NCBI RefSeq assembly: GCF_003334305.1
Contig: NZ_QOWS01000014.1
DNA: 64,000 nucleotides
Source of the DNA: Escherichia coli
Lineage (GTDB): Bacteria > Pseudomonadota > Gammaproteobacteria > Enterobacterales > Enterobacteriaceae
Strand: one strand, 5' to 3'
Positions 3,261 to 19,430 of the stretch are shown here, in pieces (position 1 is the first letter of the stretch; each line of letters begins with the position of its first letter). The notes beneath the pieces are model-generated. The model searched no databases and was not told where the DNA came from. It saw only the letters and a list, made by a program, of their open reading frames with translations. A program made the position numbers and the translations under genes.

Positions 3261-4887
3261 TAGGTTTCACTTTCGGAATATAGATTGAAAACAAGGTACC
3301 GCAGGGATCATTATCTTCGAGAGTGATAACACCACCGCAGCGCGTTACGTAGCTGGCAATCAAGTACAACCCAATGCCATGTTCACCGGGCTCGTCAGCA
3401 CGCGTACTGACCCCCTGCTCAAATATTTTGTCTCGTAGAGACTCTGGAACGCCGCAGCCCTGATCGGCGACTTCAATCACCACATCATCGCCTTCATCGC
3501 TGAGGAATAATTCAACGATCTTGTTTCCTTCATCGCTACGCAGGCTGGCTTCGAAGGCGTTATCAAGTAAATTGCCCACAATGGCTGCAAACTCGGTGCT
3601 ATCCAGTCCTGGCGGCAGTTGCGAAAGCTGGCTACCGGGGACAATGATCATTTTTAGCCCCAGTTCCCGGGCGCGCTGCACTTTACCAAAAAGCAGCCCC
3701 GCCACCTGGCGATCGGCAAACGCCTCACGCAGGCTGTCAATAAGCTGTTGCTGGGCCTGAGACTCCCCCTGCACCATCGCCAGCACGCGATCATACTCTT
3801 TCATCTGCAACAGACCATTGAGCGTCGACATCCAATTGAGATGCTCGTGTCGCAATGTACGAAGGCTCTCGACGTATTGTTTTATTTGCGTCAGTTGCGC
3901 ATTGAGGGTGGAAATTTCGTCTTTACTACGAAAGCTGATAATGGCCCCCAGCAAATCATCACCTGAACGAATAGCTTCCCGATTGGCAATAACGCTCAGA
4001 CCGTTAAAGTTAGCCACCACATCCTGACGTTTTTCATCAATCTGTTCGGTAAAGAAATCGGCGGGCCTGACCACTTCAGCAATGGGTTTACCCAACCATT
4101 GCCGTCCGGGAGAGCTCAGCCCCAGCATCTTTCTTGCGTTACGATTGATGGCGGTAATGTAACCATGCGGATCCACCGCAATCAGCCCTTCATAAACCGA
4201 ACTAAACAGCGCCTCTTGCTGACGGACCACGCGTGCGATTTGCTTTGGCTCCATGCCCATCATTTGCCGACGGATATGCGCTGCCAGGAACCACGACAGC
4301 AACATCAGAATCCCTAACAGCACGACAAACACGCCTGCCATCGGTAATAAAAACTCAGCCCGCCAGCTATCGATTTTACTCACCAGGTAGCCAATCGACA
4401 CCACGCCGATGACTTTTCCATCGTCATCAAAGATTGGCGTTTTGGCGCGCATCGCCATCCCCATTGACCCTTTCCCGGTAATGAAGTAGCTCTCCCCTTT
4501 CTCCAGCGCGCCCTGTTTGGTGAACTGCATAGGATAACCAATTTTCTCCGGATTAGGATGGTAAAGGCGGATCGAGTGCCGGTCCCCAATCACCACATAA
4601 TCAAAATCGGTATCTCTTTGTAATTTGTTAGCGATGGTCGCCAGCCGTTTGTAGTCACGCGTTTTCACCGCAGAGATGACACTGTCATTGGAGGCAATAA
4701 TTTTCGCCTGATTCATTGCCATGTCGCGTACATGAAGCGTTAAATAGTCCTCAAAACTGGCCGTAAAATATTGCGCCAGGGCTGCAATGACAAATATTGA
4801 GAACACCAGAATCAGCAAAAAGATACGCAGCGGAAATGCCAGTCTTTGGAAAAATGCAAACTGTTTATTCTCGTTAAGCTGCAACAT
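3229..4887 (-). CDS. dpiB: sensor histidine kinase DpiB (CitA), citrate sensing
   Basis: ORF 3229..4947 (-); start trimmed to the ATG giving MLQLNENKQFAFF (552 aa); two TM segments, PAS-like periplasmic domain, HATPase C-terminus. Confidence 0.88.
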   Translation of the reverse strand: MLQLNENKQFAFFQRLAFPLRIFLLILVFSIFVIAALAQYFTASFEDYLTLHVRDMAMNQAKIIASNDSVISAVKTRDYKRLATIANKLQRDTDFDYVVIGDRHSIRLYHPNPEKIGYPMQFTKQGALEKGESYFITGKGSMGMAMRAKTPIFDDDGKVIGVVSIGYLVSKIDSWRAEFLLPMAGVFVVLLGILMLLSWFLAAHIRRQMMGMEPKQIARVVRQQEALFSSVYEGLIAVDPHGYITAINRNARKMLGLSSPGRQWLGKPIAEVVRPADFFTEQIDEKRQDVVANFNGLSVIANREAIRSGDDLLGAIISFRSKDEISTLNAQLTQIKQYVESLRTLRHEHLNWMSTLNGLLQMKEYDRVLAMVQGESQAQQQLIDSLREAFADRQVAGLLFGKVQRARELGLKMIIVPGSQLSQLPPGLDSTEFAAIVGNLLDNAFEASLRSDEGNKIVELFLSDEGDDVVIEVADQGCGVPESLRDKIFEQGVSTRADEPGEHGIGLYLIASYVTRCGGVITLEDNDPCGTLFSIYIPKVKPNDSSINPIDR

Positions 4888-12926: not shown

Positions 12927-13072
12927 TCATCTGATTTACAAAACACGCTAATTCGTCTTCCATAAACCGTGACGATTAAGAATTATACATAATGCGCTGC
13001 ATTGAGGAATTCCCTGAATGTGACGCAAATCACTTCAAAGAGTGAGCAACAGTCAGTATCATCATGTGAGTT

Positions 13073-13107
13073 AAACCCTCGCCGCCTGACGGTGAGGGTT
13101 TTCTTTT
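13073..13107 (+). terminator. hairpin plus T-tract in the rna-rnk intergenic region
   Basis: aaccctcgccg...cggtgagggtt inverted repeat followed by ttcttttggg; coordinates approximate. Confidence 0.5.
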
Positions 13108-13155
13108 GGGTATGTTTATCTGCGACACTCGCAGTACCGACGACATGGAGTAAAA

Positions 13156-13566
13156 ATGTCCAGACCAACTATCATCATTAACGACCTGGATGCCGAACGC
13201 ATCGATATTCTGCTGGAGCAACCCGCCTATGCTGGTTTGCCAATCGCCGACGCGTTAAACGCAGAGTTGGATCGCGCCCAAATGTGTTCGCCAGAAGAGA
13301 TGCCACACGACGTGGTGACAATGAACAGCCGGGTTAAATTCCGCAATCTTAGCGATGGCGAAGTGCGTGTGCGCACGCTGGTGTATCCGGCAAAAATGAC
13401 CGATAGCAATACTCAGCTTTCCGTTATGGCTCCGGTAGGTGCCGCACTGCTGGGGCTGCGCGTTGGCGATTCCATTCACTGGGAACTTCCGGGCGGCGTT
13501 GCAACCCACCTTGAAGTGCTGGAACTCGAATACCAGCCAGAAGCTGCTGGCGACTACCTGCTTTAA
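13156..13566 (+). CDS. rnk: regulator of nucleoside diphosphate kinase Rnk (GreA/GreB-like)
   Basis: 136-aa [23 protein letters not shown]. Confidence 0.9.
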
Positions 13567-13703
13567 TCCCATCTGCACAAGCGATAACTCGCTTTGCCCA
13601 GAGGATGCACTCGCATCCTCTTTACGCAAAATCAGCAATTTTTCCTGGTTCTCACTGTTCACTTTTGCTGCAAAATTATTCCGTTTCGTTTGTGGGAATA
13701 ACC

Positions 13704-13793
13704 ATGGCAGAAGCATTTTACATCCTGATAGGATTTCTGATTATGGCGGCGATTATCGTCATGGCTGTCCTTTACCTCGAAAACCACTCCTGA
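13704..13793 (+). CDS. candidate small membrane protein (29 aa, single predicted TM helix); hypothetical
   Basis: ATG at 13704 in frame with track ORF 13605..13793; MAEAFYILIGFLIMAAIIVMAVLYLENHS; weak GGGAA RBS-like motif upstream; ends 3 bp from the convergent ybdR stop. Confidence 0.3.
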   Translation: MAEAFYILIGFLIMAAIIVMAVLYLENHS

Positions 13794-13796
13794 CGA

Positions 13797-15035
13797 TCAT
13801 ATTGTTCCCCCCGGCATCGCATTCACCAGACCTGAAACCGCCTTCTGCGCCGCCTCTGCGCTTTGTGCACCGGGTACCAGAATCACCTTACGGCACTCCT
13901 CTTCACGTTTTTCGAAAATCTCATATCCCCGGGCGGCCTCTTCAAACGGCATATAGTGGGTAACAATTTCTTCTGGTTTCAGTAATCCTTTCTCAATTAA
14001 CGGTAATAATTCTCCCAGCCATGCGTGAACGTGGGTCTGTCCCATTTTAAACGTCAACCCTTTATCAAAGGCGTCGCCAAACAGGAAACCGTGAATAAAT
14101 CCAGCGTAGACGCCCGGTACGCTAACAATGCCGCCACGCCTGACCGCCGCAATACACTGGCGCAACGCTTTACCGCTGCTGCCCTCCAGTTTCAGGTTAG
14201 TCAGCACCGTTTCCGTGGTGCTGCCTTTCGCTTCAAAACCGACGGCGTCTATTACTGCATCCACGCCCCGGTGACCTGCCGTTTGTTCAATAATTGACTG
14301 TGCCGGATCGCTATCTTCATCGAAATTAATCGGGATCGCGCCGTAGCGGTCAGCGGCGAAACGCAAGCGGTAGGGATGATGATCAACAACAAAAATCTGT
14401 TCCGCACCGAGCAACCGTGCACAGGCGATTGTCAACAATCCCACTGGACCGGCACCATAGACTGCAACGCTTGAACCTTGTTGGATCTGCGCATTTTTTG
14501 CTGCCTGCCATGCCGTTGGCAGAATATCAGAAAGGAAAAGGGCTTTATCATCTGAAAGCAAAGGCGGTACTTTAAACGGCCCCACATTCTCTTTAGGGAC
14601 GCGGACATATTCCGCCTGTCCACCAGGAACGCCACCATACAGGTGACTATAACCAAACAATGCCGCGGGAGCTGGTATCTGTTTTTTATTGAGCGCAGCG
14701 CCTTTACCCGCATTGGTATTTTCGCAGGCGGCATATTGCTGCATTCGACAGAAAAAACAGTCGCCACAAGCAATGACAAACGGAATTACCACCCGGTCGC
14801 CTTTTTGCAAATTTTTTACGTCCTTTCCGGTTTCAACGACTTCCCCCATAAATTCATGACCAAAAATATCGCCATGTTTAACCTGGGGTATTTTGCCTCG
14901 ATAAAGATGGAGGTCAGAGCCACAGATCGCCGTTGCCGTAATACGCAGAATAATATCATCTGCCTGTTCAATGCCCGGATCGGGAACATTTTCTACCTGA
15001 ACGTGATGTGGGCCGTGATAAGTCAATGCTTTCAT
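13797..15035 (-). CDS. ybdR: Zn-dependent alcohol/threonine dehydrogenase-family oxidoreductase YbdR
   Basis: 412-aa [24 protein letters not shown]; GHEFMGEVV Zn-ADH motif. Confidence 0.88.
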
Positions 15036-15255
15036 GCAACCTCCAGAGACAGTTCAAAAAAGAGTCAGTCTTTAAGGGTAGCTATCACAGCGGGAAAACG
15101 GGCGGTACCGCAGGTTTTGGGAGAATTCCTGGTGTTCAGTGAGAATATATTAATCACAGAAACCGTTCGTAAGGAAAAAGAACCAGACAAATATCAGGGA
15201 TAAATATTATAATCATGGCGAATGATTTGTTCATGATTAACAGGGAGAAAGGGTT

Positions 15256-19270: not shown

Positions 19271-19430
19271 TAAAAAAGCATGAATTGCTCGCTCTGCCCT
19301 AAGTGGCTATGCTATTTTAGAAAAACTTAATCCTGAGTTAAGCAAAAAAATATAATCAATAAAAATATATACGCAAAAAACATTGATTAAGTGAATATAC
19401 CATGGAAGAAAAATATAACCGGAGTAGTGT

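Follow-up and report, generated by a model that had tools for sequence, protein, structure and literature searches.

The only characterized homolog of the small protein described here is YoaI of E. coli (b1788, 34 aa), an inner-membrane peptide under PhoB control that both binds EnvZ and activates it (PMC11429745). A C-terminal GFP fusion of YoaI fluoresces at the cell periphery/membrane. In a two-hybrid assay the peptide interacts with EnvZ, and it increases EnvZ-OmpR output; the E31A and E31Q variants have lost both activities (PMC11429745). Glu31 is one of three residues described as invariant in YoaI, the others being Ser26 and Val27, and overexpression of the peptide delays growth in a manner independent of EnvZ (PMC11429745). 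For YldA, the second small protein relevant here, the available work concerns detection and expression. VanOrsdel et al. (2018) tagged 80 short ORFs with SPA at their chromosomal 3' ends, and immunoblots of LB cultures revealed 36 of the products; in Table 1 of that study, yldA appears at 643330-643419, between ybdR and rnk, with a 29-aa product that is exactly MAEAFYILIGFLIMAAIIVMAVLYLENHS (PMC6001520). Thirteen proteins of the same study, YldA not among them, were also positive in a tetracycline ribosome-profiling screen (PMC6001520). Further, yldA is among the genes induced by NaF under anaerobiosis, along with envelope-stress, osmotic-stress, and phoPQ/rstAB genes, an association that is correlative only (PMC10100675), and ybdR-yldA has been given as a convergent transcriptional overlap (PMC12288877). 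We found no functional study of YldA in the searchable literature.

The window analyzed here, i.e., the whole stretch of 64,000 nucleotides, contains at 13704-13793 (+) an ORF that begins with ATG at 13704, comprises 29 codons, and ends with TGA at 13791-13793; its translation is MAEAFYILIGFLIMAAIIVMAVLYLENHS. Its conserved upstream neighbor is rnk (13156-13566, +), and its downstream neighbor, found in the K-12-type haplotype, is the convergent ybdR (13797-15035, -). As rnk ends at 13566 and ybdR extends from 13797, the gap between them is 230 bp, and 3 bp separate the stop of the ORF from the stop codon of ybdR. An earlier note on this DNA had proposed a gene for a small protein with a single transmembrane (TM) segment in this gap. 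Its start codon, ORF length, and translation were reproduced exactly, its gap length and distance to the ybdR stop agree with our coordinates, and its reading as a single-TM small protein gene is borne out by the identity of the product to YldA, by a hydrophobic core (residues 4-25) with a GRAVY of 2.7, and by the selection on the reading frame described below. The note was mistaken in one respect, that it did not regard the ORF as an annotated gene: since the 2018 paper the K-12 reference has carried it as b4734, with NCBIfam and Pfam families of its own.

The ORF at 13704-13793 is yldA (b4734), a gene already known and annotated in E. coli. In a megablast search with positions 13500-13900 against 5,426 complete E. 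coli genomes, the RefSeq label of the ORF across the species was “yldA: small membrane protein YldA,” the annotated yldA coding sequence of a K-12-lineage genome yields the identical protein, and an exact-sequence look-up of the window protein returned UniProt YLDA_ECOLI. The corresponding entry in NC_000913.3 is b4734/YP_009518757.1, at 643330-643419. Positions 1-29 of 29 match the NCBIfam equivalog NF041476 (“membrane_YldA”) with 57.9 bits against a cutoff of 45, and Pfam PF23689 (“YldA-like”) matched 22 of 22 orthologs, with a best E-value of 8.4e-21. By position, too, the ORF belongs to the YldA family, as it lies downstream of rnk. Compared with K-12 YldA, the window feature has the same sequence, length, and location between rnk and ybdR, and no difference was found. 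We therefore hold with high confidence that the ORF is yldA, that it is coding, and that its product is a membrane peptide; finding it from the letters was a correct rediscovery of a gene that has been named, detected, and annotated since 2018. Two longer in-frame alternatives for the start, ATG at 13605 (62 aa) and GTG at 13692 (33 aa), were rejected because neither is conserved; in orthologs either this GTG or GCG is found, and the triplet seems to belong to a Shine-Dalgarno (SD)-like element. The longer database entries are fusions or old annotation calls.

To follow the ORF across species, 80 syntenic loci from species-representative genomes were fetched via Rnk, and all their short ORFs were searched with a YldA profile. 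An ORF approximately 145 nt downstream of rnk, always of 29 codons, was present as 36 distinct sequences in eight or more enterobacterial genera, with positive loci in Escherichia, several Citrobacter, Enterobacter, Lelliottia, Leclercia, Pseudenterobacter, Phytobacter, and some Kosakonia. Across these 36 sequences the third codon positions are the most variable (entropy 0.68, 0.50, and 1.23 at positions 1, 2, and 3 respectively), the mean pN/pS is 0.385, and the median dN/dS is about 0.23. The yldA reading frame is under purifying selection across genera. Cross-species conservation and the pattern of synonymous and non-synonymous substitutions had been proposed as a check in the earlier note, and both speak for a coding gene; SPA tagging with western blotting, which it had also proposed, is already in the literature (PMC6001520). 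This comparative evidence of fixed length, purifying selection, and conserved synteny confirms that the ORF is a genuine gene. A chance intergenic ORF could be imagined here given that ORFs of this size are frequent (dozens of at least 20 aa lie within 3 kb, so that length by itself is unremarkable) and that the SD is weak, but the immunoblot detection of YldA (PMC6001520), the conservation, codon-position pattern, and fixed length across genera, and the existence of curated families refute this reading, which we consider next to impossible.

In an alignment of 31 sequences of the YldA family (consensus MxExLxITLxFLIxxAIIVxAVLYLERHW), M1, A21, L25, and E26 are invariant, and E3, I7, A16, V19, V22, and L23 are at least 90% conserved. 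Two acidic residues have counterparts in YoaI: Glu26 (codon at 13779-13781, +), present in 31 of 31 sequences and aligned with YoaI Glu31, and Glu3 at the acidic N-terminal end (codon at 13710-13712, +), which is Glu in 30 of the 31 sequences and Asp in the remaining one, and is aligned with the invariant Glu8 of YoaI.

The gene is not found downstream of rnk in every lineage of the syntenic survey: those that lack it there include Salmonella, the C. freundii group, Kluyvera, and Trabulsiella, and this absence indicates that yldA is dispensable. Four arrangements are present, namely rnk-yldA-uspG, rnk-yldA-ybdR-uspG, rnk-ybdR-uspG, and rnk-uspG. Because all four combinations of presence and absence occur, yldA is independent of ybdR, and a functional link between the two genes was rejected.

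E. coli itself is dimorphic at approximately 13628-15250 of the window (compare 4128-4420 of locus L002). The K-12 haplotype, with the yldA allele of the window and with ybdR, is found in 3,601 complete E. coli genomes, and a haplotype without ybdR, carrying the second yldA allele MSEALGITAFYIFIAAIIVAAVLYLEQRW, in 1,818; the latter allele is also present in E. albertii and other Escherichia. Of the breakpoints between the haplotypes, one immediately follows the rnk terminator hairpin and the other falls at the RBS/ATG of uspG. Their YldA alleles are only 52% identical, and each is closer to a Citrobacter allele (76%) than to the other E. coli allele. That yldA is retained in both haplotypes despite this divergence is a further point in favor of a genuine gene. 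In a predicted 67-aa protein (P0047), the N-terminal half of the second allele is joined in frame to the upstream region and complete allele of K-12, which suggests a recombinant junction of the two haplotypes in some assembly.

In loci without ybdR, yldA is followed after approximately 125 nt by uspG in the same orientation, an arrangement in keeping with an ORF that acts in cis only, as a uspG leader ORF or by transcriptional interference with ybdR, and whose peptide has no function. Such a role appears highly improbable to us in view of the constraint on the amino acids (the dN/dS given above and four invariant residues), the fixed length, the retention of yldA whether the downstream gene is the co-directional uspG or the convergent ybdR, and the existence of a trans-acting paralog, YoaI.

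The relationship with YoaI, on which we found no statement in the searchable literature, is what is new here beyond the annotation. For both E. coli YldA alleles and nine orthologs, the NCBIfam YoaI model (NF041475) is the second-best match, with 19-33 bits, always in the register in which YldA 3-29 corresponds to YoaI 8-34; reciprocally, YoaI matches the YldA model. Ten composition-preserving shuffles searched against both models gave no match at E ≤ 10. Smith-Waterman alignment of YldA and YoaI scored z 4-7 over full shuffles and p 0.001-0.007 against shuffles of the core only, and hhalign, run on a YldA alignment of 31 sequences against a YoaI alignment of 15, gave a probability of 97.8% with an E-value of 1.2e-12. 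An exhaustive search with a joint YldA and YoaI profile over 1.84 billion representatives (clustered at 50% identity) recovered 63 proteins at E ≤ 0.001, all of the YldA or YoaI type. Two of the 63, P0080 (...SVLYLERRW) and P0094 (...AVRYLERRW), combine a YoaI-style N-terminus with a YldA-style tail, and both genes are located between a DUF441 gene and a tRNA_edit gene. This position is that of the yoaI locus, since K-12 yoaI (NC_000913.3 1874078-1874182; 579-683 of locus L087) sits between yeaK and yeaL. Outside E. coli, some Enterobacterales thus have a peptide with the YldA-type tail (VLYLERRW) encoded at the yoaI locus itself.

YldA and YoaI have in common a single TM helix, an E-x-L-x-I-T start, and a V-L-x-h-E-R end, and their C-termini coincide in the alignment. 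Val27 of YoaI corresponds in the joint alignment to Val22 of YldA (30 of 31 sequences) and YoaI Glu31 to Glu26 (31 of 31), and the invariant Ser26 of YoaI is replaced by the invariant Ala21. From these sequence comparisons we conclude that YldA is a paralog of YoaI without its first five residues (MNDQM). The two have diverged, as the window protein scores 22.5 bits against the YoaI equivalog cutoff of 45 bits, which makes it a homolog and not an equivalog, and as Pfam PF23689 does not match E. coli YoaI. They also occupy different loci, yldA lying between rnk and ybdR rather than between yeaK and yeaL. Both K-12 paralogs stand nearly stop-to-stop with a convergent gene (a 0-nt gap for yoaI-yeaK and a 3-nt gap for yldA-ybdR), which may be a coincidence.

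Upstream of the gene, a terminator-like hairpin, AGAGGATGC-ACTC-GCATCCTCT followed by TTT, lies between rnk and yldA at 13600-13624 (+) and is part of the minimum free energy (MFE) fold. Essentially every yldA-positive locus has it, with a stem that is nearly invariant in at least eight genera and a loop that varies freely. As just three T residues follow the stem, the U-tract is short and read-through into yldA may occur. Located beyond this hairpin, yldA probably has its own promoter; a sigma-70 promoter scan found none convincing upstream of it, the sole match being inside the ORF. A weak SD-like GGGAA (13694-13698, +) lies 5 nt 5' of the ATG, and its duplex with the anti-SD has an energy of -4.2 kcal/mol, no better than 19% of shuffles. 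Orthologs carry G(T/C)GGGGA or GCGGAA at this position. The predicted MFE fold of the K-12 5' UTR includes a hairpin that could sequester the SD; as a conserved feature, such SD masking was rejected because RNAalifold gave no common structure in 36 orthologous 5' regions. The rnk leader RNA (Rfam RF01771), upstream of rnk at 13002-13110 (+) with 124.9 bits, was the sole Rfam match at E ≤ 1, a search that returned no toxin or antitoxin RNA.

A weak SD that a hairpin could occlude, together with a short and very hydrophobic product, resembles what would be expected if YldA were a type I toxin-like peptide whose translation is held down by antisense transcription from ybdR, and the convergent position of ybdR at a 3-nt gap, the published transcriptional overlap (PMC12288877), and the growth delay upon YoaI overexpression (PMC11429745) fit the same picture. 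We nonetheless regard it as improbable. Tagged YldA accumulates in normally growing cells (PMC6001520), no toxin family is among the NCBIfam matches and no toxin/antitoxin RNA among those of Rfam, the 5'-UTR structure is not conserved, and yldA occurs without ybdR in one third of E. coli genomes and in many genera. The peptide, in particular its C-terminal motif, is moreover under purifying selection.

A further feature of the upstream region concerns PmrA/BasR. A PmrA box consists of two xTTAAK hexamers 5 bp apart, which replace the -35 element at about -37 to -21 (PMC10570014). Ten Enterobacter or Lelliottia loci (L026, L030, L035, L040, L041, L044, L045, L049, L056, and L057) have a perfect direct repeat of this kind, CTTAAT-N5-CTTAAT, at -42 from the yldA ATG (-47 in L040), and there is one other match in the 515 kb of fetched loci. 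Only 25-28 nt separate the end of the Enterobacter/Lelliottia box from the ATG, at odds with the placement just given, and the would-be -10 is GC-rich, so that activation by PmrA in Enterobacter is geometrically doubtful; the box may instead serve repression, be used by another regulator, or have been inherited by chance. In the window allele the repeat is degenerate (approximately 13662-13685), and PmrA-box activation of this yldA was rejected, as the box is both degenerate and badly placed. The sole strict match to the PmrA-box pattern in the 64-kb window is CTTAATCCTGAGTTAAG at 19326-19342 (+), where about 0.1 would be expected by chance.

As to mechanism, YldA, which is nearly all one hydrophobic helix, would be a single-pass inner-membrane peptide, most likely inserted N-out/C-in like YoaI. 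This orientation agrees with the N-terminus, which is acidic, and with the tail, which is basic in most orthologs (E-R/K-H/R-W). The K-12 allele, with its ENHS tail, has no Lys or Arg, and its topology is hence not fixed by the positive-inside rule. The helix and the juxtamembrane motif A-V-L-Y/F-L-E26 may bind a larger inner-membrane protein and tune the activity of that partner. By analogy with YoaI, which activates EnvZ via Glu31, the residue aligned with YldA Glu26, the partner would most likely come from the sensor histidine kinases and could be EnvZ or another of them; that YldA is a kinase modulator is a proposal that we make tentatively.

The same architecture, a single TM helix with short polar ends, would serve equally well if YldA, as an accessory subunit or modulator, acted on a membrane protein other than a kinase, such as a transporter, a respiratory complex, or a lipid or LPS enzyme, for which AcrZ-AcrB, MgtS-MgtA, CydX, and PmrR-LpxT provide models. 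Small membrane proteins target many classes of partner (review PMC12648545), the EnvZ-independent growth effect of YoaI overexpression indicates that even the paralog has other targets (PMC11429745), and the perfect PmrA box of the Enterobacter-type orthologs hints at a connection with the envelope or LPS. Against this stand the lack of a conserved co-directional operon partner (the next gene varies between uspG and ybdR, and the terminator of rnk separates yldA from it) and the fact that the sole characterized homolog, YoaI, acts on a kinase. A non-kinase partner is possible though doubtful, and we consider it about equally likely as a sensor-kinase partner.

Extending the sensor-kinase proposal, YldA and YoaI may form one small Enterobacterales-specific family of kinase-tuning peptides. 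YldA would then act through Glu26 on EnvZ or on a second sensor kinase, and the alleles of E. coli, which share 52% identity and of which one is without the basic tail, would have different partners or different strengths; the Enterobacter gene might in addition be controlled by PmrA. We offer this as a speculative scheme that could well prove wrong. If true, it would imply strain-specific wiring of envelope-stress signaling through the two YldA alleles. The natural two-allele polymorphism of E. coli yldA provides a built-in comparison, and the homology with YoaI together with the hypothesis on Glu26 could lead to a function for this orphan small protein.

Among other known small membrane proteins, PmrR (29 aa, PmrA-activated, a modulator of LpxT; NF033224) resembles YldA in length and general class, and in the PmrA-box-like repeat upstream of Enterobacter yldA, which in the window allele is degenerate and badly placed. 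The PmrR model matched no real YldA sequence and, weakly, one shuffled control. With the pairs MgrB-PhoQ, SafA-PhoQ, and MzrA-EnvZ, the likeness lies in the proposed mode only, in which a small bitopic peptide acts by binding to a sensor kinase (PMC12648545). MgrB, SafA, and MzrA are unrelated to YldA in sequence and have 47-127 aa with functional periplasmic segments, whereas YldA has about three extramembrane residues on each side.
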